A stretch of 64,000 bases of DNA from a candidate division WOR-3 bacterium (GTDB taxonomy: Bacteria > Hydrothermota > Tepidihabitantia > SM23-42 > JAOAFX01). The first letter of the stretch is position 1. Each line of letters begins with the position of its first letter. The translations under genes and the position numbers were made by a program. Below, one piece after another: positions 25,493 through 62,109 of this stretch. The stretch spans positions 64,595 to 128,594 of the forward strand of contig JBDRVV010000003.1 in the NCBI GenBank assembly GCA_039802005.1, written 5' to 3'. The notes beneath the pieces were generated by a model, which was given only the letters and a program-made list of their open reading frames with translations, was not told the DNA's origin and searched no databases.

Positions 25493-25647
25493 AATGTATT
25501 ATAACAAAAAAATACATAAAAGTCAATCCTGTTTTTTATTGAATCATTTTTAACTACAATATCTTATCCAATAAATTGGTTAACCATAAAAAAGTTTATT
25601 GAACTCAAAAGAAGGAAAATAATTGTTTATGCAATTATAGGAGAAAT

Positions 25648-25687: not shown

Positions 25688-25780
25688 ATCAAATATATTC
25701 AATATCAGCGTAAATTCTCACGATTTATGGGGAAATTATGAAGTTATAATTAAAATTAAGTGTAATAATTCCAGAGGCAC

Positions 25781-25798
25781 TGTTGCAAAATTGCAACA
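25781..25798. promoter_or_regulatory. Second palindrome TGTTGCA-AAAT-TGCAACA; candidate UAS
   Basis: Perfect 7+4+7 inverted repeat, about 90 bp upstream of the -24 element at 25881. Confidence 0.45.
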
Positions 25799-25879
25799 TA
25801 TTTTAGCATATCGTTTCCGTTTTTTACTCTATCAGAGGAAAAACTTATGAAATTTCGGAGGTTTTTTAAAATTATAGAC

Positions 25880-25896
25880 GGGCACGCATTTTGCCT
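25880..25896 (+). promoter_or_regulatory. Sigma-54-type promoter (-24 GG / -12 GC): gGGCACGcattTTGCc
   Basis: GG at 25881-25882 and GC at 25893-25894 (12-nt spacing). Fits the TGGCACG-N4-TTGCW consensus except for the first T. Confidence 0.45.
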
Positions 25897-25905
25897 ATAG
25901 ATATA

Positions 25906-25982
25906 TAGGGTAGAGTAAAATAGGGCGGAAAGTGGAGAGGGGTTTGTAGAAAAACTTAGGCACTTCCGCCCTCTTTTTTGTT
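25906..25982 (+). ncRNA. Candidate ~75-nt sigma-54-dependent small RNA or leader, ending in an intrinsic terminator
   Basis: Predicted TSS about 12 nt after the -12 GC. The transcript would end at hairpin GGGCGGAAAGTG...CACTTCCGCCC (25923-25971) followed by CTCTTTTTTGTTCT. No ORF. Confidence 0.3.
25922..25982 (+). terminator. Rho-independent terminator-like hairpin plus U-tract
   Basis: 11-bp GC-rich stem with one bulge and a 26-nt loop, followed by TCTTTTTTGTTCT. Confidence 0.5.
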
Positions 25983-26001
25983 CTACTGCCAAAGGAGAGA
26001 A

Positions 26002-26214
26002 ATGAAAATGAAAACAGGAAATATTGAAGATATTCCAAATATAAATGAAATAAAAACAAAGGCCGAACAGAAATATATTGTAACGATTTTGAATACAGTA
26101 AATTGGCATATGACCGAGGCAGCGCGATTAATGGGCATAAATCGTTCAACCCTTTTTCGGAAGATAAAAAAATACGGAATAACTAAAAAGAAACCAAAAA
26201 GGTTGGCTTTTTAA
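26002..26214 (+). CDS. Small Fis-family (HTH_8) DNA-binding protein
   Basis: C-terminus TEAARLMGINRSTLFRKIKKYGI matches the Fis/NtrC C-terminal HTH. RBS aaaggagag at 25990-25998. The ORF track starts at 25978, but the ATG at 26002 has better RBS spacing. Confidence 0.6.
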   Translation: MKMKTGNIEDIPNINEIKTKAEQKYIVTILNTVNWHMTEAARLMGINRSTLFRKIKKYGITKKKPKRLAF

Positions 26215-27308: not shown

Positions 27309-27343
27309 TATTGACAGAGGCGAAAAAATATATAAATTATTAT

Positions 27344-28648
27344 ATGCTTATTGCTCAATTGACCTTCGGATTTTTCTGCACGGTATTTTTATTGTCACTG
27401 GGGTTATTCTATCTTTATTCTAAAAACCAGTTTGATAAAAAATTCCTTTTTGCAGGATTTTTCTTTCTCTTTGGTGCAGGATTTTTGCTTTCCAGTTATC
27501 TTATGAATTTGACATCACAACCCAGTAATACAATAATTTACTGGAATAAAATAATGTTTTCCTGTATCTTTGCTTATTTTTTTATATTTCCACAATTTGT
27601 TTATAACACGATTGGTAAAGGATATACAAAAGCATTTTGCTGGCTCACCGGACTTTTTTCTGTTATATTAATAATTTTAACACTTTTTACTGATTTATTT
27701 ATTAAAAATGAACTGATAGATTTTGCCGGCATTTACAGACCTACAAAATCAAATATAACCTATCTTTTAATCGTTCTTCTTGCAATCTGGGCAAGTTATA
27801 TATTTATAGATACAATAAAATATTACCGAAAGAACAAGCCGAAATTGATTGATGTTCGACCGATGATTATCGGCATTATTTTTGCAGTCTTATTGGGATT
27901 GCTTGACATTACGGGAACATTTTTGAACAAAACAATTATATTTAAAATAAGAGACCCATTCATATTTGGAATTTTTATCATTATGTTAACATTCGCCTGG
28001 ACATTTCTCTCACAATATTCAATGGTCTTTGCGAGTTTAAACAAATCAAAAGAAGAGATAGAAAAACTTATTGCAAAATCCAACAAAAATTTTATTGAAT
28101 TTGTCCAGTTGATTGCAAAAACCCTTGATGCCAAGGACGAATATACTGCCGGTCATTCTCTCCGTGTCCTTGATTATGCCTTAAAAATTGCTGAAGAACT
28201 AAAACTTTCGGAATCCGATAAAGAAATATTAAAGCAAGCATGCCTGCTACACGATATTGGAAAGATAGGGATACCGGACGGAATTTTGAATAAAAAAGGG
28301 AAACTTTCAGAGGATGAAAAAAGATATATAATTAATCATCCGATACTTGGACGAAAAATACTCGGCACCGTCAGTGAATTTCAACCAATCCTTGATATTG
28401 TCTATGCCCATCATGAGAGGGTTGACGGAAAAGGTTATCCCGAAGGAATTGATTGTGAAAAAATTCCTCTTCTGGCAAGAATAATTGCAGTAGCTGACAC
28501 TTATGATGCTATGATTTCAGAAAGACCTTACCGAAAGGCAAAATCCAAAGAAGAAGCAGTTAAAGAATTGCAAAATGCCAAAGATACCCAGCTTGATGGA
28601 GAAATAGTTGATCTATTTTTAAAAATACTCAATGTAAATGAAGGTTAA
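27344..28648 (+). CDS. Multi-pass membrane HD-GYP domain c-di-GMP phosphodiesterase
   Basis: About 7 TM helices, then HSLRVL...LLHDIGKIGIPDGIL...HHERVDGKGYPEGI (HD...HD...GYP). The ORF track starts at TTG 27311; the ATG at 27344 is preferred. Confidence 0.7.
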   Translation: MLIAQLTFGFFCTVFLLSLGLFYLYSKNQFDKKFLFAGFFFLFGAGFLLSSYLMNLTSQPSNTIIYWNKIMFSCIFAYFFIFPQFVYNTIGKGYTKAFCWLTGLFSVILIILTLFTDLFIKNELIDFAGIYRPTKSNITYLLIVLLAIWASYIFIDTIKYYRKNKPKLIDVRPMIIGIIFAVLLGLLDITGTFLNKTIIFKIRDPFIFGIFIIMLTFAWTFLSQYSMVFASLNKSKEEIEKLIAKSNKNFIEFVQLIAKTLDAKDEYTAGHSLRVLDYALKIAEELKLSESDKEILKQACLLHDIGKIGIPDGILNKKGKLSEDEKRYIINHPILGRKILGTVSEFQPILDIVYAHHERVDGKGYPEGIDCEKIPLLARIIAVADTYDAMISERPYRKAKSKEEAVKELQNAKDTQLDGEIVDLFLKILNVNEG

Positions 28649-37337: not shown

Positions 37338-40300
37338 TTACCGTGCTATTATAAACTTCTCAATTTTTTTATCAGTTCCGGAATTTCCCTCAGCAAGGAT
37401 ATTAACCAAATATACACCATTACTCAAATCATCCCCATACTCATCTCTGCCATCCCAGAATTTTTGATTATAGCCCGCATGACAGGAAAGTTCTGGTAAG
37501 ACCTTAACCAATCTGCCTGCAATCGTATAGATTTTTATCGTTACCTTTGCGCTTTGCGAAAGGACAAATGTAATCCATATACCTTTATGATGTTTTACAG
37601 GATTAGGATATATCAGAACATTCTCTATTGAAATGCGCTCATAGATATTAGCATTCAATAGAATCTTTTCAATGGTTTGATTATAACAATTATCACTTAC
37701 ATAGACGGTTATAGATTCTTGTGGATTATCAAGTGTAATTTCGGTTTTGAATTCTCCTTCTGAATAGGAATTTTGATTGTAGATAAAATTATTACGCAAA
37801 TCAACACGATTTAAGACATTATCCTTGCCCACATACAAAAAGAAACCACGTGCGTCTTCTTTAGAATTTAAAAGGTTAATTCCACTTTCATCAGAGACAA
37901 TTCCGGTAAGCGTAAAAGTCTTATCCACCCAGTCTCCATTTTTTAATTGTCGTGCACCATCATAGAATAATACTTTAGGACCCTCCTGGTCAGTAGTAGG
38001 CATTACAGTCCCCCAGACACGGATAGAATCAAGTGTACTACTTGTTTGGTCTTTATAACCACTCAATTTAATCACAGGTAAATGAGTTGTTGAAATAATT
38101 GGTACAGCAAATTGTGCGGTATCAATCGTCCAGTAACCATTATAAACTTCTTTACCTTCTATTCGATAATCAAAAATTAAAGTATCCTGGGTGTTAGGGC
38201 CTACACGCACCGTGCGTCTTATATGGCTGCTTATTTTATTTACGGTAGTAGGATCAATCCATTTGATATGCGTGGTATCTTTAATATATGCAGTCAAATA
38301 ATATGGTTTTTTATCAGAAAGTACTTTCAATTTCTCTAATGGCCTTATTGAGTCTTGAACTGTTTGAATATTGAAATTCTGTTTTACCTTTCTTATTTTA
38401 GTCGCCGGGTCACCAAGCATCAAATAGGTGGATATACCATTCCCTCTGTGTTTGGCAATATAATAACATTCACCCATTGTCAGATTTGTATCGGGATGCG
38501 TAAAGAGTCTAAAAAGTTCAATACCAATCGGTTGATTTGTACTTGTATTTGAAGCAGCGTGTGCACCCATTGTGCCGATCGCCCCCTGTTTCATTCTCAC
38601 AAATTCTTCAGCAATACACTCATGGTCTGAGTCATCAAATCTACCCACTGTGCAGGAAGCAAAATAGAAGAAGAAAAATCTCCTTCCATTATTCACCCTT
38701 GGTATATCGGTTTCTATAAATAATTTTTCATGGGCAAGTTGATGGGTATTACCATGCCCAAAGAAACAACCAATCAAGGCACCCTTATTGAGTTCCTTGA
38801 TAAAATCTTCTGTCGCAAGGGGTTTCACGGTATTCACATCATGAGGAGGAAATGGTAAATAACTCAGCATATATATTTTAGCCCGATCATATAACAGATT
38901 TGAGACAAAAGAATTAACTGCCTCACAGGCAGAAGAATGTGTAGTTCCTTCCCACCCATTTGCATATTCATCATCTGCAGAAAGTATGATTCTTCTATTC
39001 CATGTTCCATCTATATCACTATTCTCATAGGCAAATACTTTATCAATAAAATCACGGACTTCCTTGTTGGTACGGACAGTTATTCTGCCAAGAACCATTG
39101 CCTCAGTCCCGAAGAAATTCACATACTCACCCTCGTAGATATAGTTAGGTGGGATCCCTGGATTACCCGAAAGTGTTGTCCCGGTCTCATACATTGGGAC
39201 ATAATTCGGTGGATTCTCCTTGCCGAGGTTATTTTTGTAATCATAGGTAGCATCGCCAACGATAAGGACATACTTTGGAATAGTAGACCAGTTATTGTAT
39301 GTATGATAAAGAAAATGTTTAATTGCCAATGGGTCATATTTTCCGAAAGAAAAGTCATCAAATATTGCATCTACAGTTACCACCTTTGTAGTATATTCCT
39401 GCCGGCGATAATTGACCAAAGGCATTATTGAGTTATAAAAATTTTTGTGGGTTATGATCAAATATTCAGATCCATTGTCCACAGTTCTCAAACGACCCGG
39501 ACTGACTGGAATTAGTTTTGCATCAATTGCTGATTTTAATTGGGCAGCATACAATAACTGAAAAGAATCACAATTGCTGGAAAATGTGATATTCTTCCCA
39601 CTCATCAAAAAGTTATCAAGCATCTTTGGCTGGCGTAAGTCGGTTATATCAATGATAAATGGTTTAGAATTAACATTCTTGCATCTTATTGAATAATCAA
39701 CAGGATTTTTGAAAAAACAATGAAAAGGCTCAGTCATATCCGCCAAACGATTGTATTCTATATCAAAACAATTCAGGTAAACTGTAAGTCTTGTCGTGTC
39801 GGGTGGTAACCTTCTAACCCAGAATTCAAAAATAGAGGAATCCTTATTTAAAACACAGGTTCCTGATAATTTGACCGGGGGTAAAGACATCGTCTGCGGC
39901 AGGACAATAGTATCATTGAAAAAAGATTGACCGTCCAGAATTAACCTATACCAGAATGGCTGGGGACTCGGACTCATAGAATCAAATATTGATACAATAA
40001 TATTTGCATTACCAGAAGCATATTTATGGTTTAGGGGGACTCTCACAACCGTACTTTCAGCAGTGCCCAATGAAAAATCCATCCAGTACCAGTTTATTCC
40101 AGAACGTGTCGGATTATGAATATCCTCTTCAAAATGCAGAATTTCTTTAACGACGGTATCCGGGTTTGAATTATTCGAGGTTGCATTCACCTTTTCCATT
40201 CTCTTTCCTAACGCACCACCAAATGTAAACCAATATACATTATTTTTTGCATAGCCATTTTCATACCATTTCAAAAATGTATCTGGAACAAAATGGCTTG

Positions 40301-41180
40301 CAGGGAAACCGTAGAATATTAAATAATCATCTTTATCAAAACTATGGTCTTCTTCACCCTCAACAAATACAGGAATTTCTATGAGGGAATCAGGGAACTG
40401 CTGGAGCACATTTTTGGGCAATAGTTCAAATGCTGCATTGTATACCTTCATTGTTTGCGGGTCAAGTTGCCGCGGGTTTATCCCTGCCTTTTTTAGCTCA
40501 TCATACCCTATTTTATATAAACCTTCTTTATCTACTTCAATCTTAAACCATATGTTACTGACTGAAAATGGATTCTTTATTGTTTGTTCTAACCTTTCTC
40601 TACGCCAATATTTACACTGATCATAATTTATTATTACCCTCTTATAAATTTCCTCAAAAGAATCATTAAAGAGCGGTACCACCTTTGGTTTACCTTTAAA
40701 TTTGACTGTGATCTTCAAAACCCGCGAAATTATAATTTCTTTTTTAATAGGGTTATAGCGTACCGGATTTATTTTTAAACTAACTGTATTAATATCACGG
40801 AAATAATTAGGAGCAGATACTTCAATTATGTTTTCGGGATAGAGATGGTCTTTCTGATAGACTTTAGATACCTGATTATTAATCTCACCATAATCTCCCT
40901 CATATATTGCAAGTGACGGTACCGGCTTTATATCTATTCCAGAGTAAATTTCAGTATGATGTTCTATGACTCTCACATCCACATCGCCTTCCTGGGGAAT
41001 GCCTACAAATAAATTTAAAGAAGGTACATCGGGTTCACCGGGCTGGGCAAATGATGTCGCCCCGCTGAATTTTAAATTATTTAGTTCTATTTCTCTCCCG
41101 TAAAAATTAATCTGGATGCCCGCATCGCCCAGATTATTTACACTAACGGCAGAAATGATAAAGAAAGAAATGACAAACAT
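37338..41180 (-). CDS. Peptidase C25 (gingipain-like) cysteine peptidase, 1280 aa, with Ig-like modules and T9SS CTD
   Basis: YLIITHKNFY, YVLIVGDATYDY, GCFFGHGNTHQ (catalytic His) and FYFASCTVGRFD (catalytic Cys). CTD YPNPVKHHKGIWITF...KIYTIAGRLV...GVYLVNI. Confidence 0.75.
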   Translation of the reverse strand: MFVISFFIISAVSVNNLGDAGIQINFYGREIELNNLKFSGATSFAQPGEPDVPSLNLFVGIPQEGDVDVRVIEHHTEIYSGIDIKPVPSLAIYEGDYGEINNQVSKVYQKDHLYPENIIEVSAPNYFRDINTVSLKINPVRYNPIKKEIIISRVLKITVKFKGKPKVVPLFNDSFEEIYKRVIINYDQCKYWRRERLEQTIKNPFSVSNIWFKIEVDKEGLYKIGYDELKKAGINPRQLDPQTMKVYNAAFELLPKNVLQQFPDSLIEIPVFVEGEEDHSFDKDDYLIFYGFPASHFVPDTFLKWYENGYAKNNVYWFTFGGALGKRMEKVNATSNNSNPDTVVKEILHFEEDIHNPTRSGINWYWMDFSLGTAESTVVRVPLNHKYASGNANIIVSIFDSMSPSPQPFWYRLILDGQSFFNDTIVLPQTMSLPPVKLSGTCVLNKDSSIFEFWVRRLPPDTTRLTVYLNCFDIEYNRLADMTEPFHCFFKNPVDYSIRCKNVNSKPFIIDITDLRQPKMLDNFLMSGKNITFSSNCDSFQLLYAAQLKSAIDAKLIPVSPGRLRTVDNGSEYLIITHKNFYNSIMPLVNYRRQEYTTKVVTVDAIFDDFSFGKYDPLAIKHFLYHTYNNWSTIPKYVLIVGDATYDYKNNLGKENPPNYVPMYETGTTLSGNPGIPPNYIYEGEYVNFFGTEAMVLGRITVRTNKEVRDFIDKVFAYENSDIDGTWNRRIILSADDEYANGWEGTTHSSACEAVNSFVSNLLYDRAKIYMLSYLPFPPHDVNTVKPLATEDFIKELNKGALIGCFFGHGNTHQLAHEKLFIETDIPRVNNGRRFFFFYFASCTVGRFDDSDHECIAEEFVRMKQGAIGTMGAHAASNTSTNQPIGIELFRLFTHPDTNLTMGECYYIAKHRGNGISTYLMLGDPATKIRKVKQNFNIQTVQDSIRPLEKLKVLSDKKPYYLTAYIKDTTHIKWIDPTTVNKISSHIRRTVRVGPNTQDTLIFDYRIEGKEVYNGYWTIDTAQFAVPIISTTHLPVIKLSGYKDQTSSTLDSIRVWGTVMPTTDQEGPKVLFYDGARQLKNGDWVDKTFTLTGIVSDESGINLLNSKEDARGFFLYVGKDNVLNRVDLRNNFIYNQNSYSEGEFKTEITLDNPQESITVYVSDNCYNQTIEKILLNANIYERISIENVLIYPNPVKHHKGIWITFVLSQSAKVTIKIYTIAGRLVKVLPELSCHAGYNQKFWDGRDEYGDDLSNGVYLVNILAEGNSGTDKKIEKFIIAR

Positions 41181-44871: not shown

Positions 44872-47619
44872 ATGTTCAGGTTTATTGTCTTTATTTTCGT
44901 TATTGGTTTTGCCTTTTCAGGCATACTTAAAGATGATAATCTACCCGGAATAGATATAGAAATTTCTAATAACGAGACGAGATACATAACACCTACTGCT
45001 ATGATACCAAAATTTTTGCCCCAGACGGTTAAATATAATCCTTCCCGCGCCGAGACTTTATGGGTTGACCGCAATCATCAATATGCTATTGCAGAACATG
45101 TTTCAATTACTGGAAATGGTATGTTTATCCAGGCAGGTTGGTGGTTAAATAATAAAAGGACAAGTTTATATAGAACACTCGGAAATAACACTCCATTATG
45201 GACTTTTCCCTTACCGCTTACCGAATGGTATATTCCGGTTGATGTATCTTCAACCGGAGAAGATATAGCCGTCGGCTCTACGGGTGAGCCATTTTATAGT
45301 TTTACTGCGAATAGTGCGGCTCCTAAATGGCGTTTTAACCTTCCACCAGGTTACAAAATTGCTACAAGTTCTCAGGGAACATGCGTTGCAGTTAGTGAAA
45401 ATGGTTCAATCTATGGGGTACTTGCAAGTGCATCGGATGTAGCTAAATTATTTATCTTCAATCAAAACGGTGACACAATACGCACAATCACATTTTCTCC
45501 CAATAGCGGTATTTACGGACTTGATATTTCCAATGATGGCAATGTATTTTGTATCTCAACTTATTATGCAACATATATTTATAATCTTAATGGGACAAGA
45601 CGCGACTCGCTCTATAATTACGGACAGAGCAGTGCAAAAATTTCTGGCGATGGAAAATATCTCGTAAAAGGACATTTCAATGGAAGAGTGTATCTCTATC
45701 GCTGGACCGGTTCTAATTATACATTAAAATGGGAACATTACACGGGTCACCCCTGGGTTACTGCTGTAGCAATATCTGATAACGGTGCCACAATCATGGC
45801 GGGGACATTCCAGTATAGCCCGACTTATTCCGGAAAGGTTTTGATGTATGATTCAACATCCTCAACACCGCTCTGGGAATATAGTCAGTATGGCGATTAT
45901 ATTGATGAGTGTGCCCTTTCTGCCAACGGAGAAAGGGGTGCTGCAGTATCATGGGGACAATACCAGGGAACATTTGGAGATGTACTCACAGTCTTTAATA
46001 AATCATCCTCCACGCCAATATTTCAGTTATTAGACGACATTGATGAACCTGGTTCATTAACTTCAGTAGATATTTCAAAGGATGGTTCATTCGTTACTGC
46101 TGGCGGGAAAGCAGTCCACGCAAGAGAATTTGGAAACGGTGGCGAGTTATATGCTATTAGGATAATTGACCAATTAGCAAACGATGTCGGCGTGAAGAGT
46201 ATTAACTCGCCAGGGAATTTTTTACAGGTTGGACAGTCAATCGCACCGCAGGCAACGGTAAAAAATTATGGAACTGCTTCTGCCAGTTTTTCTACATACT
46301 ATTTTATTTATGATTCTCTCGGCGCTGTTCTTTATCAATCAACCGCTTCAGTAAACAATCTCCAGAGCGGTGCAGAACAGGTACTGAACTTCTCGCCCAA
46401 CTGGACAGTCCCTGCTTACGGCAGATATACGACCGTTGCCTATACTGCTCTTTCAGGGGATCAATATCCTGCAAATGATACACTAAAAAAGGGTAGTATC
46501 TGTTTCCATGATGGTGCAGTATCAAGGATTGAATTTCCATTCGATGAACTGACTTTGAATTATACAAGAGCGCCTCGTGTTACAATCACAAATAACGGCA
46601 GTTATTCAGAAAATATACCCGTGGTATGTAAAATCTATGATGCTGGTAATAACCTTGTTTACACAGGTAATGGCCAGGCATATCTTACACCGCTCCAGTC
46701 CAACACGATCTGGTTAAACCCTGCCTGGGCACCTGCAACAACCCAGATACATTCTGTTTATTTCTACACTAATGTAAATGACGATTATAATCGTAGTAAT
46801 GATACATTAATGAAACAGGTCAACATAACGACGGAAATTTTATATGATGATGGTAACCTTGATGTCTATGGTTATGTATCCCCGAACTTCTATGATAACA
46901 AGTTTGCCCAGAAAATGATTCCCTGTTTGTCCGCACCATTTGTTATAACCCAGGCAAGGTTTTTTGCAAGCACATCTTCACCCATGCTCATATCATTAAA
47001 TGCTGATTCTTCAGGACTACCAGGGCTTACCCCTGATTATTACATTGCACCACCTGAAACGATATTTCCTCCAGGGAGCGGCTGGGCAGTAAAAAGCTAT
47101 TCACCACCAATCGTTATAAATAACTCAAATCCCTTCTGGCTTGTCCTTCACTGGCTCTCAAATTCACCAAGTGCCCCTTATGTCGGAATGGATAACGCAA
47201 TCCCAAGGGACAGCGTATCATACTGGTACTGGACCGAACCGTCAAATTATGGATGGCATACCTGGTATCCCTATGATTTTATGATGCGCGTCACTACAGA
47301 CTATGCACCAGGTATATCTGATAATAAAAAAACATCTGCGGAAAAATTTATGCTCTACCATCCTTTTCCCAATCCGTTTACTAATAAAGTCAGAATCTTA
47401 TTCTATTCACCAGAGCAAAGAGAGATTAAACTAAATGTCTATGATGCAACAGGCCGTCTGGTAAGGTCATTAATAAATGGGAAAATAGAAAATGGAAGAC
47501 ATCTGATTATATGGAATGGAAAAGATAACGAAAATCGAGAAGTGAGTTCTGGGATCTATTTTATTAAAGCGGATTACGCAAACAAAGTTTATACTGAAAA
47601 GGTCATTTTAATGAAATAG
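44872..47619 (+). CDS. Secreted beta-propeller + CARDB-domain protein with T9SS CTD
   Basis: Signal peptide. Repeated propeller blades of roughly 45 aa (e.g. ISNDGNVFC, SGDGKYLV, ISDNGATIM). Two CARDB-like blocks, e.g. NDVGVKSINSPG...ATVKNYG. CTD YHPFPNPFTNKVRILF...KLNVYDATGRLV...GIYFIKA. Confidence 0.5.
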   Translation: MFRFIVFIFVIGFAFSGILKDDNLPGIDIEISNNETRYITPTAMIPKFLPQTVKYNPSRAETLWVDRNHQYAIAEHVSITGNGMFIQAGWWLNNKRTSLYRTLGNNTPLWTFPLPLTEWYIPVDVSSTGEDIAVGSTGEPFYSFTANSAAPKWRFNLPPGYKIATSSQGTCVAVSENGSIYGVLASASDVAKLFIFNQNGDTIRTITFSPNSGIYGLDISNDGNVFCISTYYATYIYNLNGTRRDSLYNYGQSSAKISGDGKYLVKGHFNGRVYLYRWTGSNYTLKWEHYTGHPWVTAVAISDNGATIMAGTFQYSPTYSGKVLMYDSTSSTPLWEYSQYGDYIDECALSANGERGAAVSWGQYQGTFGDVLTVFNKSSSTPIFQLLDDIDEPGSLTSVDISKDGSFVTAGGKAVHAREFGNGGELYAIRIIDQLANDVGVKSINSPGNFLQVGQSIAPQATVKNYGTASASFSTYYFIYDSLGAVLYQSTASVNNLQSGAEQVLNFSPNWTVPAYGRYTTVAYTALSGDQYPANDTLKKGSICFHDGAVSRIEFPFDELTLNYTRAPRVTITNNGSYSENIPVVCKIYDAGNNLVYTGNGQAYLTPLQSNTIWLNPAWAPATTQIHSVYFYTNVNDDYNRSNDTLMKQVNITTEILYDDGNLDVYGYVSPNFYDNKFAQKMIPCLSAPFVITQARFFASTSSPMLISLNADSSGLPGLTPDYYIAPPETIFPPGSGWAVKSYSPPIVINNSNPFWLVLHWLSNSPSAPYVGMDNAIPRDSVSYWYWTEPSNYGWHTWYPYDFMMRVTTDYAPGISDNKKTSAEKFMLYHPFPNPFTNKVRILFYSPEQREIKLNVYDATGRLVRSLINGKIENGRHLIIWNGKDNENREVSSGIYFIKADYANKVYTEKVILMK

Positions 47620-53985: not shown

Positions 53986-54129
53986 ATAAAATTATACACA
54001 CTATAACACCAAAGTCAATAAAAAAAACGTAATTTCTTGCTATTTTCGGTTGACAAAATGTAGATTATAACTATAATTTAAAAGGATTAAAAAAAGGCAT
54101 CTATGTCTGATAACCAATGACGTCTTTTA

Positions 54130-54213
54130 GCCGGGGTGGCGGAATTGGGAGACGCACCAGGTTCAGGACCTGGCGCTGGCAACAGCATAGGGGTTCAAAT
54201 CCCCTCTCCGGCA
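54130..54213 (+). tRNA. tRNA-Leu (anticodon CAG), class II with long variable arm
   Basis: Acceptor GCCGGGG/CTCCGGC; anticodon stem CCAGG/CCTGG with loop TTCAGGA; 16-nt variable arm; T-arm AGGGGTTCAAATCCCCT. Confidence 0.85.
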
Positions 54214-54299
54214 CTTTTGGAGATGATATTTGAAAGAATGTCTTACAAAAACTTTTGGTTCTTAAGAAATAATTAAGGCTATCACTGTGATAAACAATA

Positions 54300-55706
54300 A
54301 TGAATAAATTAAAACTACTCATATCTGCTGGTTTGATAATCTATACATTGTTTTATCTTATCCAATCTTCAACTATAATTACATATCCTTACCAGGTCTC
54401 GTATCCAGAAGGATTAATTCTTAATCAGATAAAACTCTTATTAGAAGGTAAACCAATATATAAAAGTATCAACGATTACCCACTCATTGTCACAAATTAC
54501 CCCCCGGTCTATCTTTTACTATGTGCCGGGTTTGTGAAATTATTTGGTCTTTCATTTATTTGGGGAAGATTGATTACATTTCTTGCCACAATTTTTGTTG
54601 TCTTTATGATATACAAAATTCTTCACCAAAAAACTCAAAAAGAAATCGCCATTATTTCTGCCCTTTTATTTATCTCATCTTCTTATATTTACAAAGATAC
54701 ACCCTTTATGCGCGTTGATATGTTAGGATTACTATGTAGCCTGCTTGGATTTTATATCTTTCTCCGCGTTGACCTGAAGAATAGCACCCTGTATTCAATA
54801 CCTTTCTTTATTTTATCCCTATACACAAAACAGACCTTTATTTCCGCTCCCATAGCCATTGCAATATCATTATTATTCAGACTGAGAAAAAGGGCGTTAA
54901 TATTTATTCTTTTGATGATAATCTCCTATCTGTTTATATTCTTTATAATAAATCAATCGACCCATGGCGAATTCTTTCGTCACAATATTTTATATAATTT
55001 TAATATCTTTGACTTAAAACAGGCATTTAAATTTTATATTCGTTTTTTACAGAACCATGCAATATTATTTTTTTTCTCTGTATTATTTATCCTTGATACA
55101 TTTAGAAAGAAGGAATTTTCTTTCTGGAGCGTATATTTTATTATTGCCGCAATCAATGGATTTTCAGTAGGAAAGGTCGGTGCGAATACAAATTATTTTT
55201 TTGAACTGATCGCCCTCAATTGTATTCTTGCTGGTCTCTCAATTGAAAGATTAAAAAATTATATTGATGAAAAGAAATATCCTCTTTTTATAAACGGTGC
55301 ATTACTTACCCAATTGATATTATTTCTTCATATGCCTTTCTATAGTGAACCAGCAATAACCAAAACCGACTGGCGAAATTTTGCGCAACTTTCGCAGGTC
55401 ATATTAAATACTGATGGTAAAATAATTTCTGAAGACGCCGGGATAATTGTGGTTAACAAAAAACAAGTTTTATTTCAGCCTTTTGAACTCACCCAGCTTG
55501 CCAATCAAAAACTCTGGAATCAGGATAAGTTTGTGAATGACATTAAAAACAGGCGTTTTTCACTTCTTGTTTTTAGTTTCAATGTCAATTGCTCTTTTGA
55601 TAAAGAACGTTTAACATCTGAAATGGCAGATGCAATAAAAGAAAATTATTATATAGAAAGAATTATTGGCGATTATTTTTTGTATAAACCACTTTCTACT
55701 CCATAG
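54300..55706 (+). CDS. Polytopic membrane protein, putative GT-C-fold glycosyltransferase (PMT/ArnT-like)
   Basis: At least 10 TM helices in the N-terminal 350 aa and a soluble C-terminal domain. Family assignment is tentative. Confidence 0.45.
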   Translation: MNKLKLLISAGLIIYTLFYLIQSSTIITYPYQVSYPEGLILNQIKLLLEGKPIYKSINDYPLIVTNYPPVYLLLCAGFVKLFGLSFIWGRLITFLATIFVVFMIYKILHQKTQKEIAIISALLFISSSYIYKDTPFMRVDMLGLLCSLLGFYIFLRVDLKNSTLYSIPFFILSLYTKQTFISAPIAIAISLLFRLRKRALIFILLMIISYLFIFFIINQSTHGEFFRHNILYNFNIFDLKQAFKFYIRFLQNHAILFFFSVLFILDTFRKKEFSFWSVYFIIAAINGFSVGKVGANTNYFFELIALNCILAGLSIERLKNYIDEKKYPLFINGALLTQLILFLHMPFYSEPAITKTDWRNFAQLSQVILNTDGKIISEDAGIIVVNKKQVLFQPFELTQLANQKLWNQDKFVNDIKNRRFSLLVFSFNVNCSFDKERLTSEMADAIKENYYIERIIGDYFLYKPLSTP

Positions 55707-56239: not shown

Positions 56240-56327
56240 ACACAAATCAAGAGGGCTGGGGAATGGCCCCAGATTGGAGAAAAAACACCCAGCCCCCTTG
56301 CCGGCAAGATCTTTACATAGCACAACT

Positions 56328-56939
56328 TTATTTTGTAATCGCCCTCCTTACATATTCACAAGGCAGTTTTAGAAATACATCAGCAAGTTCAGGGTCAAAT
56401 TGTTTGCCTTTGCATTCTTGAATTTCTATTTTAGCATCCTCTTCACTAATTGATTTTTTATATGGCCTATCAGAAACCATTGCTGAATAGGAATCACAGA
56501 CTGCAAGAATCCTTGCACAGAATGGAATTTCTTCCTTTTTCAAACCTTCTGGATAACCTGTACCATCGTATTTTTCGTGGTGATAAAGTATCCATTGTTT
56601 AACTTCCTTTAATCCATCCACTGTTTTTATCATATCTGAACCTTTTTTCGGATGTTGTTTCATTATATCCCACTCGTACTTGTTAAGTGAACCTGGTTTG
56701 TTAAAAATTTCTTCGGGAATAACGATCTTTCCTATGTCGTGTAATAGACCAGCCAATTTTATCAACATTAGTTCTTTTTCTGATAAACCAATAAATTTTC
56801 CCATCAAAAAAGCAAGTTCAGCGACCTGAAAAGAATGATTTTTCGTATAAATATCAGTCAATTCCATTAATTTAACGAAAGATAGAACCGATGCTATATT
56901 TATATTTTTTATGTTTTTAAAATATATGCTGCTATCCAT
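56328..56939 (-). CDS. Cytoplasmic HD-GYP domain c-di-GMP phosphodiesterase
   Basis: HSFQVAE...LLHDIGKIVIPEEIF...HHEKYDGTGYPEGL. Confidence 0.75.
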   Translation of the reverse strand: MDSSIYFKNIKNINIASVLSFVKLMELTDIYTKNHSFQVAELAFLMGKFIGLSEKELMLIKLAGLLHDIGKIVIPEEIFNKPGSLNKYEWDIMKQHPKKGSDMIKTVDGLKEVKQWILYHHEKYDGTGYPEGLKKEEIPFCARILAVCDSYSAMVSDRPYKKSISEEDAKIEIQECKGKQFDPELADVFLKLPCEYVRRAITK

Positions 56940-57037
56940 TATTTAACTCCCCAATCTTTCATTAAAACAAAAATTATAATGCATGCTTCCCTTTTTTCTA
57001 TTCAAATATAAATTCTTTTATAACCATTTTTTATATA

Positions 57038-57053
57038 TGCAAAAATCGTGCCT
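57038..57053 (-). promoter_or_regulatory. Near-consensus sigma-54 promoter driving the HD-GYP gene (minus strand: tAGGCACGATTTTTGCAt)
   Basis: On the minus strand, GG lies at 57052-57051 and GC at 57040-57039 (12-nt spacing). GGCACG-N4-TTGCA matches TGGCACG-N4-TTGCW. About 88 nt upstream of the ATG at 56939. Confidence 0.55.
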
Positions 57054-57104
57054 ACAAAAAGTATTGAAATTTCAGTGGATTCGATTGCATACAATTATCA
57101 AAAA

Positions 57105-57121
57105 TGCGACAAATTGTCGCA
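57105..57121. promoter_or_regulatory. Palindrome TGCGACA-AAT-TGTCGCA flanked by A5/T5; candidate EBP UAS and/or bidirectional terminator
   Basis: Perfect 7+3+7 inverted repeat, about 60 bp upstream of the sigma-54 -24 element. Second copy at 57175-57193. Confidence 0.45.
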
Positions 57122-57174
57122 TTTTTAATTGTTTTTAGAATGTCACGAAATTACATGGGGTTTGCAGCATATAA

Positions 57175-57193
57175 GTGCGACAAATTGTCGCAC
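57175..57193. promoter_or_regulatory. Second copy GTGCGACA-AAT-TGTCGCAC, plus half-site TGTCGCA at 57203-57209
   Basis: Identical core 72 bp from the first copy; 42 nt past the stop of the activator gene. Confidence 0.45.
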
Positions 57194-57234
57194 TTTTTGA
57201 CCTGTCGCATTGAGTTTCAAATCTAAACAATGCT

Positions 57235-60200
57235 CTAATTTTTATTTAAATTAAATTTTTTAATATATCTCTCAATCGTTCTCCTGCTCACACCAAGAAT
57301 CTTCGCAGTCTCTTTTATGCTCCAATTTGTCGTATTAAGGGCATTTCTTACTGCCTCTTTTGTAATTTCCCTAATGGGTAGCATCTCTCGTTCCCTGTTA
57401 AAACCTATATCTCCCACCCTGATTATTTTAGATTTTGCGAGAACCGCAGCCCGCTCAACAATATTCTGTAATTCTCTAACATTCCCGGGCCAGGGATATT
57501 CCTTCAATAATTTTAAAGCATCGTCACTAAAACCTTCTATTGTTTTATTTAATTCTTTACATTTCAATTGTAAGAAAAAATTTGCAAGCAATGGTATGTC
57601 TTCAATACGTTCCCTCAAACTTGGGACTTTAATAATAAAAACATTTATCCGATAATAAAGGTCTCTTCTAAATCTTCCTTCTTCAACCTCAATATCAATC
57701 TCTTTATTTGTAGCAAACAGAAATCGCACATCAATCTTCCTTGTCTGAGTCTCACCAAGCCGTCTTATGACTTTATCTTCTATCGCCTCAAGCATTTTTG
57801 CTTGAAATGCTGGACTTGTATTTGTAATTTCATCAAGAAAAACAGTACCCCCATTAGCCTCTTCCAGAAGTCCTTTTTTATCAGCTACAGCGCCGGTGAA
57901 GGCTCCTTTCTTATATCCAAACAATTCCGATTCCAACAATGTTTCTGGAATCGTACCGCAATTTATATTCACAAATTTCTTATCTTTTCGCCTGCTTTTT
58001 AAATGAATCAGTCTGGCAATCATTCCCTTCCCTACCCCAGTTTCCCCAGTAATAAGCACGGGTGTGTCTGTTGGTGCAACATCATTGATAAGATTATAAA
58101 TCTTTTTCAAAACCCTTGATTTGCCCATAATATATCCTTTTCCAATTTCGAGAACCGTCCCATCTCTTAATTGCACAAATTCTTCGCGTAAATTTTTGAA
58201 AGACATTGACTTATCAATGACCGATGCGAGTATCTTTGACACGGTTATCAAAAAATCTCTATCTTGTTCACCAAACATTGAACCCGGAAGTGTAGAGTCC
58301 AAGTAAATTGCACCAACAATTCGGTCTCCGATTATAAGCGGGATACATAATATTGTCCGAATTTGATTAAGCAAGACACTCCTCCTTATATTAAACCTTG
58401 AATCCTGCAGTGCATCAGGTACAAAAACAATATGATTTTTGTTGACCTCATCAATTGCTGTTTTGGAAAGTTCACCTGCATCTCTGATTGTCCTTTTATC
58501 CATATTCCTGCCTGCCGCCAGTTCCATACCTTCTTCTGTACTGATAAACAATGCTCCGCGTTCTGCATTTGTAGTATTAATAACTAAATCAAGAATGCTC
58601 GCTATAAAATCCTCATCCCCCAAATGAGAATTTATCAGTTCAGCAAGATTTGAAAAAGTATTTAAATAACGATCTGGCATCTTCCGCCTTTCATAATCCT
58701 TCAAAATCTGCGGATAAAATTCTACCATTATTTCCCGGATTTTAGTAAGTTCATATTTTGCGCCAATCGTTTTCAAAATATTTTCTGTTGCATAAATCTG
58801 TTCTGCAATATCCTTAATTTTTTCTGGTTCAATTCCGCGTTCAAGGATTGCTTCGATTTTTAACCTTTGCAAGAAAGCATAATCAAATAAATAATCATTC
58901 TCTCTTAGTTTACTCAATGTTTCTTCAATATCAAGTTCATCGATCTGTTTACTCCTGAATTTAACAATCTTCACAAGTGATGTCGCTACTTTTCTCTCTC
59001 TGCTCAGAGGGGTGCTGAGCTCTTCCGCCTTAGATGCATAGGTGAGTGCGCGAGATAAATCACTATTGCCAAGATAAAAATCAGAAGCAATTAAAAAAAC
59101 TTCAATCTTTAATGGCTGCAAGATCTTTTCTTCTTTCATTCTATTTAGTGCCTTATCCATATAATCTTCTGCCATTTTTTGCTTACCCAATGCAGCATAA
59201 ATTTTACCCAAACCCGCAAGATAAACAACTTCCTCCTTTGTTTTTATCTGTTCTTCCAGAATATCCTTTGCCTTCTCAATTTCGCCGAGTCTATAATAAT
59301 TCATTGCAAGCCCATAGAATGCATAGACCGAATCAGGTTCAATATTCAATGCCATATTGAAATATTCTATGGCACGGGCAAATTTACAGGTATCCTGATA
59401 TAGTCCGGCGAGATAGATAAGAACCGCATGTTGCATAGGTTTGATATTTGCCTTCTGTACACCTTTTAAAGCAATCTCAAAATCACTCACCGCCTCAGTA
59501 ATTTGTCCTTTATCTATGAATAGAAAAGCCCTGTTAATCAGAGAAGATAAATAGCCGTTGTATATTTTCTCGTTTTCAAACTCTTTGATTGCCTTATCAA
59601 TATATTTCATACTCTCATCTATATCCCCTAATTGTGCATAAATTGAACTTAGCATATTTGCTGCGTATGCATACTGCTTTTTTAAATTGTTTTGCTCACA
59701 GAATTCCAACAAATTAAAACATATATCCTTTGCCTTTTTGTAATCTTCTCTGAACCACTCAAGGGTAGTAAAATAATACATTGTACTTGCCAGGGATTCA
59801 TAATCTTTGATTTCGGTGCAAAGGTTTAACAAATCATTCAAAATTTTTTCACTATCTTCAAATCTGTTAATATTCATATAACAATAAGCGAGGCGATGAG
59901 CATTATCAATATAATCTTTCGTATCTGTGCTTTTAGATAAATCTAATACCTCTATGGCATTATGAAAATACCCCATATTTGTATATGCACGACCCAACCC
60001 TGACAGACACTTATTTCTAACCTCGGGGAAATTCAGCCCTGATTTATAATACTCAATCGCCTTTTGATTGTCCCCTTGATTTGCATACAAATTTCCCAAT
60101 TTCAAAAGAATATTTTGATACGCTGACGGTTCTATACTTTGACAACAATTGATTATTTTTTCATAATAAAAAATCGCCTCTTTAATATCATTCATTGTCT

Positions 60201-62109
60201 CAGCTCTTTTTGCTGAAAGACTGAAATACTTGTAGGCACTTTCATATCCACCGGTCTGTTCATAAAGTGTACCAAGCAACGGATAGTAATCCTTTATAAT
60301 GTCCGAAGATTCTATTACCTTTATAAGTTTATGAGAAATCTCGTTGTATTCTTCTTTATTCATAATCTGTAAAATAACCACTTTAATTATCTGGTTCGCC
60401 AATGAACATAATATTTTCCCCTGCGAAATATCTAATTTTATAAAGCCATTAATCTTTAGGAATTCAATTAAAGAATTAATATTTTCAGGTGCAAAATTGC
60501 TTAAAACAGACAAAGGCAATGAATGGTTTGCTATACTTAGTACTTTCAAAATGAGAAGTTGATTGTGATTTAAACAAGAAAGCCTTGATGACATTATTTC
60601 CTCAAGTTTAGCGGAAATTTCTAATTTTGTTAATAATTTCAAATCTACAACCCATTTATATCCTTTATATTTTAAAATTTCCTTTTGATAAAGTGTTTTG
60701 AGTGTTTCCACTATAAATAACGGATTGCCACCTGAATGTTTATGGAGCCAGAGTATAAATTCATAAAGATTGTTTTCATCTTCGGTTACAACATCTAATA
60801 AAGTTTTTTCGATTAATAATTTAATCTCATCAACGGAAAAGGGCATCAAATTTATTTTAGCAAAATTCAACTCCTCAATTTTGGGGGAAAATTTCGCACT
60901 CCCTATAATGATTGCCTCGGTATTTTCCAGACTGTGACTTATGTAACGGAATAATCCGAACTCATATTCACTCAAATTATCAATGTCATCAACAAGAATT
61001 GCCACTCTTTTATTTTTTGCAAATTCCAGGAATTTTTCTGTTATATTCATATAAATCTGTAACCGTTCAATGTCATCTCCAAAATTTACATTTTTATAAT
61101 TTATAAAATCGCCAAGGGCTTCATAAAAATGTCTTTCTGAACCAGTTGTAAAAAATAAAACATCATAACCTTTGAAAAGAAATTTATACTTCAATTCCTT
61201 TAATAATCTTGTCTTTCCTGCGCCCATCCCGCCCATCACTATAACTGCCTCGCCTTTCAAATTAAGTAATCTTTCTGTTATATCAGATATTTCTATAAAT
61301 ACAGTTGGTGGCAGATAAACTTTATAAGTAAGAATTTCGGCTTTCTTTCCTGGTAAAAATTTATTAAAAATTGCATAAAGTTCAGGAGCAGTGGGTCTCA
61401 AATTAGGTTCTTCTGCAAGGAGTTTAGCGATTGCGTTATTTATTTCTTCAGGTATGTCTTTTATCGGTCTAAAGGGCATAACTGCCTTGTTATGTGAGAT
61501 GATCTTATATATAATCATACCAAGAGAATATAAATCGCTCCTTTGGTCAGGACCAATTCCCTTAAATATCTCGGGTGCAATGTATCCGATTGTGCCCGAT
61601 GCCTTGATTTGTTGGCTCGTTATTCCTGCAAAACCAAAGTCAATGAGCACAGCCTTTTTTTGTGCGGTATCGTAAATAATATGCTCGGGTTTTAAATCGC
61701 TGTGCACATAACCCTTGTTATGAAAGGCGGACAGTGCGTTGATTACCTGAATCATTGCCTCCAACAAATCGTTATTAAAACCGACAAAACACTCATCTAT
61801 AGGTCTCCCATTTATATATTCCATAGTAAAAAAAGAAAAACCATCCTTTGTTGTTGCATATTCATATACAGATACAATATTGGGATGATGAAACTGCGAA
61901 AGAATCTGAAATTCTCGGGCAATCAATTGATTAAACTCAGGAACATTGTCTTTCGCTATCTTTAATATTATATCTTTATTTTTCTCCCTAACTCTGAAAA
62001 CAACTGAATAATTCCCAACCTCCAATCTTTCCAGTATTTCATATCCATTTATTTTCTTTGGGATATTATCCATTGTAGAATAGTCTATTTCTTTTTTAGA
62101 TTTTGTCAA
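57235..62109 (-). CDS. 1624-aa multidomain regulator: Hanks-type Ser/Thr kinase + STAND/AAA_16 P-loop NTPase + TPR array + GAF + sigma-54 activator AAA+ domain (GAFTGA) + Fis-type HTH
   Basis: Kinase motifs ILKIAK, HSDLKPEH, DFGFAG and GTIGYIAPE. P-loop GGMGAGKT with Walker B LVDDID. More than 10 TPR-like repeats. GAF block LVINTTNAERGALFI. EBP core VLITGETGVGKG, GAFTGA, TVFLDEI and NVRELQN. C-terminal HTH TAKILGVSRRTIERYIKK. Confidence 0.8.
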   Translation of the reverse strand: MTKSKKEIDYSTMDNIPKKINGYEILERLEVGNYSVVFRVREKNKDIILKIAKDNVPEFNQLIAREFQILSQFHHPNIVSVYEYATTKDGFSFFTMEYINGRPIDECFVGFNNDLLEAMIQVINALSAFHNKGYVHSDLKPEHIIYDTAQKKAVLIDFGFAGITSQQIKASGTIGYIAPEIFKGIGPDQRSDLYSLGMIIYKIISHNKAVMPFRPIKDIPEEINNAIAKLLAEEPNLRPTAPELYAIFNKFLPGKKAEILTYKVYLPPTVFIEISDITERLLNLKGEAVIVMGGMGAGKTRLLKELKYKFLFKGYDVLFFTTGSERHFYEALGDFINYKNVNFGDDIERLQIYMNITEKFLEFAKNKRVAILVDDIDNLSEYEFGLFRYISHSLENTEAIIIGSAKFSPKIEELNFAKINLMPFSVDEIKLLIEKTLLDVVTEDENNLYEFILWLHKHSGGNPLFIVETLKTLYQKEILKYKGYKWVVDLKLLTKLEISAKLEEIMSSRLSCLNHNQLLILKVLSIANHSLPLSVLSNFAPENINSLIEFLKINGFIKLDISQGKILCSLANQIIKVVILQIMNKEEYNEISHKLIKVIESSDIIKDYYPLLGTLYEQTGGYESAYKYFSLSAKRAETMNDIKEAIFYYEKIINCCQSIEPSAYQNILLKLGNLYANQGDNQKAIEYYKSGLNFPEVRNKCLSGLGRAYTNMGYFHNAIEVLDLSKSTDTKDYIDNAHRLAYCYMNINRFEDSEKILNDLLNLCTEIKDYESLASTMYYFTTLEWFREDYKKAKDICFNLLEFCEQNNLKKQYAYAANMLSSIYAQLGDIDESMKYIDKAIKEFENEKIYNGYLSSLINRAFLFIDKGQITEAVSDFEIALKGVQKANIKPMQHAVLIYLAGLYQDTCKFARAIEYFNMALNIEPDSVYAFYGLAMNYYRLGEIEKAKDILEEQIKTKEEVVYLAGLGKIYAALGKQKMAEDYMDKALNRMKEEKILQPLKIEVFLIASDFYLGNSDLSRALTYASKAEELSTPLSRERKVATSLVKIVKFRSKQIDELDIEETLSKLRENDYLFDYAFLQRLKIEAILERGIEPEKIKDIAEQIYATENILKTIGAKYELTKIREIMVEFYPQILKDYERRKMPDRYLNTFSNLAELINSHLGDEDFIASILDLVINTTNAERGALFISTEEGMELAAGRNMDKRTIRDAGELSKTAIDEVNKNHIVFVPDALQDSRFNIRRSVLLNQIRTILCIPLIIGDRIVGAIYLDSTLPGSMFGEQDRDFLITVSKILASVIDKSMSFKNLREEFVQLRDGTVLEIGKGYIMGKSRVLKKIYNLINDVAPTDTPVLITGETGVGKGMIARLIHLKSRRKDKKFVNINCGTIPETLLESELFGYKKGAFTGAVADKKGLLEEANGGTVFLDEITNTSPAFQAKMLEAIEDKVIRRLGETQTRKIDVRFLFATNKEIDIEVEEGRFRRDLYYRINVFIIKVPSLRERIEDIPLLANFFLQLKCKELNKTIEGFSDDALKLLKEYPWPGNVRELQNIVERAAVLAKSKIIRVGDIGFNREREMLPIREITKEAVRNALNTTNWSIKETAKILGVSRRTIERYIKKFNLNKN

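Follow-up and report, generated by a model that had tools for sequence, protein, structure and literature searches.

In enhancer-binding proteins, which activate transcription from sigma-54 promoters, control usually lies with a receiver, PAS, GAF or V4R domain or with a partner protein, and STAND proteins usually end in simple effectors. Among the described systems with related parts, MalT of Escherichia coli acts at sigma-70 promoters, and PknK of Mycobacterium tuberculosis, which is not known to carry a sigma-54 AAA+ domain or a helix-turn-helix (HTH), affects transcription indirectly by phosphorylating other regulators. Reportedly, Jelsbak, Givskov and Kaiser described in 2005 that FHA-domain enhancer-binding proteins of Myxococcus are coupled to Ser/Thr kinases. 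The RRNPP receptors of Firmicutes (PlcR-PapR, NprR-NprX) are small TPR-HTH proteins. Here, we analyzed a 64,000-nucleotide stretch of DNA from a candidate division WOR-3 bacterium (referred to as the window), which encodes a single protein of 1624 amino acids (aa), in the following called the megaprotein. It is a one-component enhancer-binding protein, in which a Hanks-type Ser/Thr kinase and a MalT/PknK-type STAND module replace the receiver ahead of a NifA/NorR-like GAF-AAA+-HTH part. The megaprotein probably acts as a sigma-54 activator that binds two palindromes and drives the promoter of a neighboring HD-GYP gene, so that its signal would lead to the breakdown of cyclic di-GMP (c-di-GMP) or a related dinucleotide.

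The N-terminal domains of enhancer-binding proteins exert their control in cis, the enhancers are located about 100-150 bp upstream and oligomerization to a ring is needed (PMC7057263); NorR has a GAF domain that represses its AAA+ core (PMC2941729), and three enhancer sites (PMC2831303). The C-terminal ~470 aa of the megaprotein show the same order as NifA, NorR and FhlA, i.e. a GAF domain, a sigma-54 AAA+ domain with GAFTGA loop and a Fis-type HTH, and the several palindromic enhancers predicted upstream of the promoter resemble those of NorR. In contrast to these activators, the megaprotein carries about 1150 extra N-terminal residues (kinase, STAND NTPase, TPRs), its predicted enhancers are 70 bp apart rather than adjacent, and its putative target is a c-di-GMP phosphodiesterase. 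In the STAND scheme, a repeat sensor follows the domain for nucleotide binding and oligomerization (NOD), effectors are found at the protein ends and multimerization depends on an inducer, and PknK is listed in the MalT-type STAND subfamily (PMC4381067). The megaprotein shares with MalT the NOD, the arm, the TPR-like sensor, a C-terminal DNA-binding effector and likely also inducer-dependent multimerization; however, MalT ends in a LuxR-type HTH, whereas the effector of the megaprotein would be an ATP-driven sigma-54 ring, to which an N-terminal kinase is added. PknK, going by its domain description, is alike in its N-terminal Hanks kinase, MalT-type STAND NTPase and repeats. Eukaryote-type kinase signaling also feeds sigma-54 activators in the Myxococcus FHA systems, but kinase and activator are separate there and joined via an FHA phospho-threonine reader, whereas the megaprotein is one chain with a STAND module in between and no FHA domain. 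Each part is thus familiar alone, and the novelty lies in joining a GAF-type enhancer-binding protein with a MalT/PknK-type STAND module and a kinase. In the literature that we searched, including sigma-54 surveys, we found no report of an enhancer-binding protein that carries a fused kinase or STAND module, although an earlier passing mention may exist, and nothing on sigma-54 in WOR-3.

The megaprotein is encoded by an unbroken frame of 1624 codons with a TTG start. The corresponding NCBI model MEO0122752.1 starts at Met13, comprises 1612 aa and is 100% identical to the window protein. The gene and its domains are located as follows:

57235..62109, minus strand: megaprotein gene (1624 aa from TTG; 1612 aa from the ATG at 62073)
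61345..62043, minus strand: Hanks-type Ser/Thr kinase, aa 23-255 (Pfam Pkinase, 1.4e-32, and conserved motifs)
60355..61272, minus strand: STAND NOD, aa ~280-585 (AAA_16/AAA_22 and AlphaFold (AF2) fold)
58810..60342, minus strand: arm and TPR array, aa ~590-1100, the presumed sensor (Pfam TPR families)
58213..58614, minus strand: GAF domain, aa 1166-1299 (Pfam GAF, 3.7e-11; GAF_2; GAF_3)
57406..58131, minus strand: sigma-54 activator AAA+ core and lid, aa 1327-1568 (Sigma54_activat, 3.9e-65; AAA_lid_14, 6.5e-25)
57253..57375, minus strand: Fis-type HTH, aa 1579-1619, with the recognition helix SRRTIERYI (HTH_8, 2.6e-8)

We searched 5.8 billion proteins for homologues and obtained 407 matches at E <= 1e-10, of which the best 120 were inspected. 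All of these 120 carry the same Pfam set, down to an identity of 25%, and 111 of them are 1500-1900 aa long; more than 100 full-length homologues with 25-76% identity share the domain set. A scan of one genome per GTDB species yielded 21 family loci, and the hosts belong to WOR-3, Stahlbacteria and TA06 DG_78 and include one metagenome-assembled genome (MAG) labeled Cloacimonadota. All family members that we found stem from MAGs, and CP070664.1, SKW300 and A3_metabat1 contain two paralogues each. Public databases carry these proteins under generic names; MEO0122752.1, for instance, is labeled 'sigma 54-interacting transcriptional regulator [candidate division WOR-3 bacterium]'. An earlier note on this DNA, made without database searches, had proposed that kinase, STAND NTPase, TPRs, GAF domain, sigma-54 AAA+ core and HTH follow each other in one protein. 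The Pfam scan recovered exactly this order, each of the motifs that it quoted (HSDLKPEH, DFG, APE, GETGVGK, GAFTGA, RELQN) is found in the megaprotein, and all of its coordinates and motifs were reproduced upon recomputation. That the protein is indeed one chain is supported by the continuous frame and by the recurrence of the same domains in the homologues at the 21 loci and among the best 120 matches. Residue conservation was counted over an alignment of 112 homologues. Judged from these comparisons, the kinase-STAND-activator fusion is real and under selection, because homologues share the domain set and catalytic motifs hardly vary in any of the three nucleotide-using modules.

The activator module is complete. 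The Sigma54_activat match (aa 1327-1493) covers positions 1-167 of the 168 profile positions, it is preceded by the GAF match (aa 1167-1296), and AAA_lid_14 (aa 1499-1568) and HTH_8 follow it. GETGVGKG, DE, FRRD..YR and NVRELQN are kept in 105-112 of the 112 aligned sequences, the R-fingers in all of them, and sensor II is conserved as well. The GAFTGA loop is located at aa 1402-1407, with G in 110, F in 106, T in 112, G in 105 and A in 108 of the 112 sequences. The AAA+ core and the GAFTGA loop are thus accompanied by a C-terminal HTH with predicted upstream sites and by a predicted -24/-12 promoter, as expected for an activator of this kind. The best NCBIfam model is NifA (TIGR01817, aa 1154-1576). 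However, the scores stay below the equivalog cut-offs (nifA, 340 vs 529; NorR, 307 vs 476; FhlA, 239 vs 830), and the megaprotein therefore resembles a GAF-type activator but falls outside NifA, NorR and FhlA.

According to sequence matches and the structural model, the middle of the megaprotein has a STAND fold. AAA_16 matches aa 285-395 with 37.9 bits (cut-off 32.6), and AAA_16 and AAA_22 together cover aa 285-405. The window protein contains a Walker A motif (GGMGAGKT), a Walker B motif (ILVDD) and GGNPLF; across the family, GxxGxGK[TS] (G296-x-G298-K299-[TS]), hhhhDD and GGNPLF are conserved, and K299 is kept in 111/112 sequences. An AF2 model of aa 255-700 (pLDDT 90, pTM 0.80) shows a nucleotide-binding domain, a helical domain and a winged helix, which are followed by helical repeats. 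The top Foldseek match of the NOD model in the PDB is the STAND-TPR protein 6mfv (E 2e-13); further fold matches include Apaf-1, CED-4, NRC2, NOD2 and MalT (8bob), the last being ranked 11th (TMq 0.53, TMt 0.57). When the NOD-TPR region was compared to the PDB by sequence, only TPR proteins and no STAND protein were matched. TPR_12, TPR_2, TPR_8 and TPR_19 were detected by Pfam, with the best TPR matches spread across aa 667-994, and TPR_MalT scores 34.6 bits, which is below its cut-off of 45. Together, the P-loop NOD with Walker A and B, as given by the AF2 fold and the motifs, and the repeat sensor behind it correspond to the STAND scheme.

The N-terminal kinase was matched by Pkinase at aa 23-211 (113.6 bits vs a cut-off of 31.7), and sequence matches of this domain in the PDB include CaMKIV, ULK1/2 and PknB. 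It possesses the features of a kinase fold, i.e. the VAIK Lys, the helix-C Glu, the catalytic Asp, DFG and APE. In the alignment, K50 and E66 are kept in 111/112 sequences, H136, D138 and R238 in 112/112, and the residues of D157-F-G and of A178PE in 109-112/112. The canonical GxGxxG loop, the HRD Arg and the catalytic-loop Asn are absent from the megaprotein: its Gly-loop reads VGNYSVV and is degenerate, its triad is HSD (non-RD), and in HSDLKPEH the residue His143 (codon 61681-61683, minus strand) takes the place of the Mg-binding Asn of HRDLKPxN. Judged by its conserved residues, the kinase is somewhat more likely than not to be catalytically active. A possible but doubtful alternative is that the circuit works as proposed, with the kinase being a dead pseudokinase that only serves as a scaffold or nucleotide sensor. 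The degenerate Gly-rich loop (E-x-G/S-N-Y-A) throughout the family, the replacement of the HRD Arg by S, G, C or T, and the His instead of the catalytic-loop Asn in 80 of the 112 members, including that of the window, would fit this idea. However, the VAIK Lys, the helix-C Glu, the Asp and Lys of HxDLK and the DFG Asp are near-invariant down to 25% identity, the GT..Y.APE segment and the Arg of subdomain XI are likewise invariant or nearly so, and the retention of such residues is uncommon among pseudokinases; moreover, 32/112 members still keep the Asn.

Behind the megaprotein gene and on the same strand follows the putative target gene with its regulatory elements:

56328..56939, minus strand: stand-alone HD-GYP phosphodiesterase gene, 203 aa, the proposed target (HD_5, 4e-39)
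57038..57053, minus strand: predicted sigma-54 (-24/-12) promoter AGGCACGATTTTTGCA (GGCACG-N4-TTGCA)
57105..57121, no strand assigned: proximal predicted enhancer palindrome TGCGACA-N3-TGTCGCA, centre at about -85, with A5/T5 flanks
57176..57192, no strand assigned: distal predicted enhancer palindrome TGCGACA-N3-TGTCGCA, centre at about -156
57203..57209, minus strand: lone half-site TGCGACA, also present in the related loci L001 and L002

The core of the predicted promoter, GGCACGATTTTTGC, is located at 57039-57052 on the minus strand (GG, 57051-57052; GC, 57039-57040), which places the predicted start site of the HD-GYP transcript near 57027. In the window, the promoter pattern occurs three times with up to one mismatch (1.39 expected), which is not above chance alone; the significance of this promoter is based on its conservation in related loci and not on the pattern frequency. 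For this we compared the DNA behind each stop codon over 15 distinct orthologous or paralogous loci, and two further loci, L063 and L064, were added separately. GG[CT]A[CT]-N5-TTG[CT] is found on the same strand, 165-406 nt past the stop codon, in 13/15 loci, whereas the background amounts to 0.072 per kb (39 occurrences on the two strands of 543 kb, with the true sites counted). The regex also matches in L064 (25% identity), and L063 (29% identity) has a -24/-12-like variant, TGGCATAGAATATGCA, which the regex missed.

The two palindromes of the window are perfect, 17 bp long and their centres are 71 bp apart; no other copy exists in the 64 kb, even when up to two mismatches are allowed (0.12 matches expected). 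In the relatives, two to three palindromes of 17 bp precede each promoter with centres 69-71 bp apart, three in a row being present in Stahlbacteria and in L063, and the distance from the last palindrome to the -24 GG is either 60-61 bp or 73-75 bp. A palindrome at the distal position is also present in L001, L002, L003, L006, L012 and L016-L022, and in L004 it occurs as CGCGACATTTTGTCGCG. These arrays are thus kept at a fixed spacing, and their half-sites are lineage-specific.

The half-site sequence varies together with the recognition helix of the adjacent megaprotein. TGCGACA accompanies the helices ..RT(I/V)ERYI or ..TIQR(Y/L).. (window, L001, L002, L004, L006, L063), TGTG(N)CA the helix ..YRY.. 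(L003, L019, L021, L022), TGTGCAA ..YNY.. (L012), TGTATAC ..YKY.. (L017, L018) and GTTTCA ..WRY.. (L016). At position 3 of the half-site, C pairs with E or Q in the helix and T with an aromatic residue. This covariation spans 13 loci (window, L001-L004, L006, L012, L016-L019, L021, L022); L063 fits the pattern, and L064 fits an extension of it via an F residue. Since the half-site follows a single recognition-helix residue, every megaprotein probably recognizes the palindromes next to the gene that encodes it, and this covariation is the strongest argument for such binding. The earlier note had already placed the promoter GGCACG-N4-TTGCA at 57038-57053, two perfect palindromes and a third half-site upstream of it, and the HD-GYP gene at 56328-56939, and had suggested that the megaprotein controls this gene. 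The promoter is right in sequence and position and recurs in the related loci, the search of the 64 kb confirmed the palindromes and the half-site, the HD-GYP assignment holds, and the suggested control gains support from the conserved promoter, from the palindrome arrays, which persist in related contigs, and their covariation, and from the HD-GYP genes that follow the promoter in most of these loci.

That note had also cautioned that the palindromes might serve as terminators of the activator gene, which is a fair point for the proximal copy (A5/T5 flanks, -17.3 kcal/mol). Taken further, both palindromes could be nothing but intrinsic terminators of the megaprotein gene, with the promoter being served by another activator or being fortuitous. 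They lie directly behind the megaprotein stop codon, both copies fold well as RNA (distal, -15.7 kcal/mol, z -4.4; proximal, z -6.2), and the proximal copy was called terminator-like. We nevertheless regard this explanation as highly improbable, given that two to three sequence-identical copies recur at the fixed 69-71 bp in every lineage, that the lone extra half-site cannot form a hairpin, that the proximal site of L003 keeps its position but has lost the hairpin (-4.4 kcal/mol, z -0.05), that a T-run is found at only one window copy, and that the half-site sequence follows the HTH recognition helix.

It is no more probable that the megaprotein acts at distant promoters and that the adjacent one is under the control of another enhancer-binding protein, the adjacency being conserved synteny. 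WOR-3 genomes can contain several paralogues, as in the three genomes named above, and a second sigma-54 module without an activator gene alongside is present at 25.6-26.2 kb of the window. However, the half-site and the HTH helix of the neighboring protein change together over 13 loci, a pattern with which L063 and L064 agree, and the 64 kb contain no TGCGACA palindrome besides the two at this locus.

The 203-aa product of the putative target gene belongs to the HD-GYP family. The HD_5 match covers profile positions 5-170 of 170, and the translation contains the HD dyad (LLHDIGK), YHHEKYDGTGYPEG / YHHEKYDGTGYP, and HHEKYDGTGYP, which fits HHExxDGxGYP. An HD-GYP gene is located downstream in 10 of the 13 promoter-bearing loci. 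It encodes a bare 203-aa HD-GYP protein in the window, L001 and L002, a 256-aa HD-GYP protein in L012, a membrane-GAF-HD-GYP protein of 446 aa in L003 and L017, a PAS-HD-GYP protein in L006 and a GAF-HD-GYP protein of 395 aa in L019, L021 and L022 (two of the latter were assigned by homology to L021). L004 carries a gene for a receiver protein instead, with a GAF-GGDEF gene upstream, and in L065 MshEN, a c-di-GMP-binding domain, and a type II secretion system (T2SS)-type ATPase are encoded downstream; these GAF-GGDEF and MshEN neighbors again indicate c-di-GMP.

The promoter and the HD-GYP gene are separated by two small genes, ORF A and ORF B, in most relatives (ORF, open reading frame). The respective regions are:

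L003, 5129-5581
L004, 9835-10246
L006, 10080-10492
L017, 5078-5495
L021, 6600-7449
L063, ~9368-9505

The product of ORF A is 45-75 aa long, has a hydrophobic N-terminus, contains an A-x-A-D-like motif, ends in a proline-rich tail and may be an exported peptide. ORF B encodes 60-71 aa and is highly conserved; an assignment as Sm/Hfq-like protein was rejected, because it stayed below the threshold (best Hfq_1 E 0.0039, in 4/8 sequences, and no PDB match). In Stahlbacteria, ORF B is present twice, the additional copy being preceded by a further -24/-12 promoter. By tblastn, neither ORF A nor ORF B was found in the 64-kb window, and the clade of the window lacks both at the megaprotein locus, so the predicted circuit of the window is reduced to the activator, the enhancers, the promoter and the HD-GYP gene. 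The relatives L003, L004, L006, L017, L019-L022 and L063 resemble the RRNPP systems in that the gene of a TPR regulator is followed by a small gene for a putative secreted peptide under the regulator's promoter, whereas the window's own clade has no peptide gene.

In the circuit that we propose, HTH dimers would occupy the two enhancers centred at about -85 and -156, just 3' of the megaprotein gene, the AAA+ ring would contact the sigma-54 holoenzyme at GGCACG-N4-TTGCA, and ATP hydrolysis would open the promoter. As a consequence, the 203-aa HD-GYP protein would be made and the level of c-di-GMP or a related cyclic dinucleotide would fall. The upstream steps are suggested by the families to which the components belong. 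An inducer would bind the TPR sensor, the NOD, closed in its ADP form, would switch to the open ATP form and multimerize, and multimerization would concentrate the GAF-AAA+ modules, so that an activator ring could form on the paired enhancers, with the GAF domain acting as a second, probably repressive, gate. The kinases, gathered on the same platform, might phosphorylate the megaprotein itself or separate substrates, which would represent a second output. We put forward the templating of the activator ring by the STAND module only tentatively, by analogy.

A joint interpretation, which we consider unlikely as a whole, combines STAND multimerization that templates the sigma-54 ring, the kinase as second output and an ancestral peptide loop of the RRNPP kind. 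Accordingly worded, STAND multimerization, and not receiver phosphorylation or a GAF ligand alone, would switch on sigma-54 transcription, and the ring would sit on enhancers that are one ~70-bp DNA turn apart, with the DNA perhaps being wrapped on the platform. The ORF A peptide would autoinduce the system via the TPR array, with c-di-GMP breakdown as the endpoint, and the clade of the window would have lost the peptide gene at this locus. The ancestral circuit could have been one of peptide autoinduction, since ORF A is the first gene under the activator's promoter in most relatives.

Several points weigh against the proposed circuit. No rpoN gene was found among the 20 window ORFs that were scanned, and neither the window nor the related loci that were fetched (0.99 Mb of DNA) contained an RpoN box. 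In two of the 15 loci, the promoter is missing from the first 520 nt (that of L024 is located at +679; for L025, only 288 nt of downstream sequence are available), and the -12 element reads TTGT instead of TTGC in L002 and L016. A spacing of ~70 bp is unusual for enhancer-binding proteins, whose sites usually adjoin. The proximal palindrome resembles an intrinsic terminator and, since it is flanked by A5/T5, may have a dual role. The kinase may not phosphorylate, because it combines a degenerate Gly-loop and a non-RD triad with the His that most members have in place of the Mg-binding Asn. Finally, the link between STAND oligomerization and assembly of the activator ring is drawn from inference only.

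We further considered a role of the locus in anti-phage defence, either of the STAND (Avs-like) type or based on the kinase. Both a STAND NTPase and a kinase are present, and mad6/MADS6 and PD-T4-6 were matched by PADLOC and NCBIfam at the level of the kinase. However, PADLOC gave only generic domain matches (kinase, RtcR-type AAA+) and none to an Avs or other STAND defence model, the protein ends in a complete sigma-54 activator, which has its own predicted promoter and enhancers, and the neighborhood is conserved and chromosomal with housekeeping neighbors, which makes a defence function extremely improbable. That the 1624-aa ORF is an assembly or frameshift artefact fusing two genes has practically no likelihood, since, although the kinase was called as a separate gene overlapping the remainder on the metagenome contig L065, the frame in the window is continuous and 111 of the best 120 homologues, from many independent assemblies, have the same length range and domains. 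In L065 (220-5032), the 231-aa kinase gene and the remainder of the megaprotein share 20 nt, owing to a frameshift in the sequencing or to a natural split. P0060 was rejected as a natural kinase-less variant, as its kinase is a separate overlapping gene on the same contig (frameshift or split).

Two further DNA elements were recorded around the HD-GYP gene:

57065..57074, minus strand: A/T-rich element TGAAATTTCA, ~15-20 bp upstream of the -24 GG
56289..56304, minus strand: terminator-like hairpin and T-run behind the HD-GYP gene (terminator prediction)

Strings resembling AAATTTCA were seen by eye at the equivalent place in the window, L001-L004, L006 and L012, and the TGAAATTTCA / AAATTTCA-like element may be a DNA-bending (IHF/HU-type) site. 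Rfam gave only sub-threshold matches to known RNAs or riboswitches in the window (MicX, 24.9 vs 75 bits; DapZ, 22.9 vs 56), and in seven related loci only tRNAs and no family explaining the intergenic region. A sigma-70 promoter for the HD-GYP gene was considered as well, but the five promoter-like sites are uninformative, as 5.6 are expected by chance.

The second sigma-54 module of the window spans 25647-26214 on the plus strand. It contains TGTTGCA-N4-TGCAACA palindromes at 25670-25687 and 25781-25798, a weaker palindrome near 25647-25665 and a promoter, GGCACGCATTTTGC, at 25881-25894, followed by a 70-aa ORF (26002-26214) that consists of a Fis-type HTH only; no activator gene is located alongside. 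The 70-aa protein shares 50% identity (1e-14) with a protein encoded behind the paralogous megaprotein gene in L024, and this counterpart sits behind the same kind of palindromes and sigma-54 promoter (L024, 5519-5778). Because of this matching arrangement and the missing activator, the genome probably encodes a second megaprotein paralogue elsewhere. A second HD-GYP protein (27311-28648, plus strand, 445 aa, HD_5 4.8e-40), whose N-terminal half has no domain assignment, is encoded about 1 kb from this module.

Elsewhere in the window, a tRNA-Leu(CAG) gene is located at 54130-54214 on the plus strand; the 73-aa ORF at 54101-54322 on the minus strand is merely an antisense reading of this region. 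Two regions, 37338-41180 (minus strand) and 44872-47619 (plus strand), encode a C25 gingipain-like peptidase and a WD40/beta-propeller protein, both of which are large, secreted and equipped with C-terminal sorting domains for type IX secretion; these proteins fit an affiliation with the FCB group, such as that of WOR-3.

The megaprotein unites a STAND switch, a Hanks kinase and an oligomerization-dependent sigma-54 AAA+ motor in one chain, and its putative target can be read beside its gene. This makes it testable whether assembly of a STAND platform can control assembly of an AAA+ ring. With its palindromes, -24/-12 promoter and HD-GYP gene, the locus also provides a compact reporter. The pairing of E/Q or an aromatic residue in the helix with C or T at position 3 of the half-site would provide a natural specificity code, and we expect that the architecture would surprise specialists in both the sigma-54 and the STAND field. 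If the kinase is active, this would be, according to the literature searched, the first case of eukaryote-type kinase signaling in cis to sigma-54, and if the joint interpretation were true, it would represent a previously undescribed way of switching on sigma-54 transcription. For WOR-3, Stahlbacteria and TA06, phyla that are known from MAGs, the proposed circuit would be the first regulatory circuit for c-di-GMP turnover.

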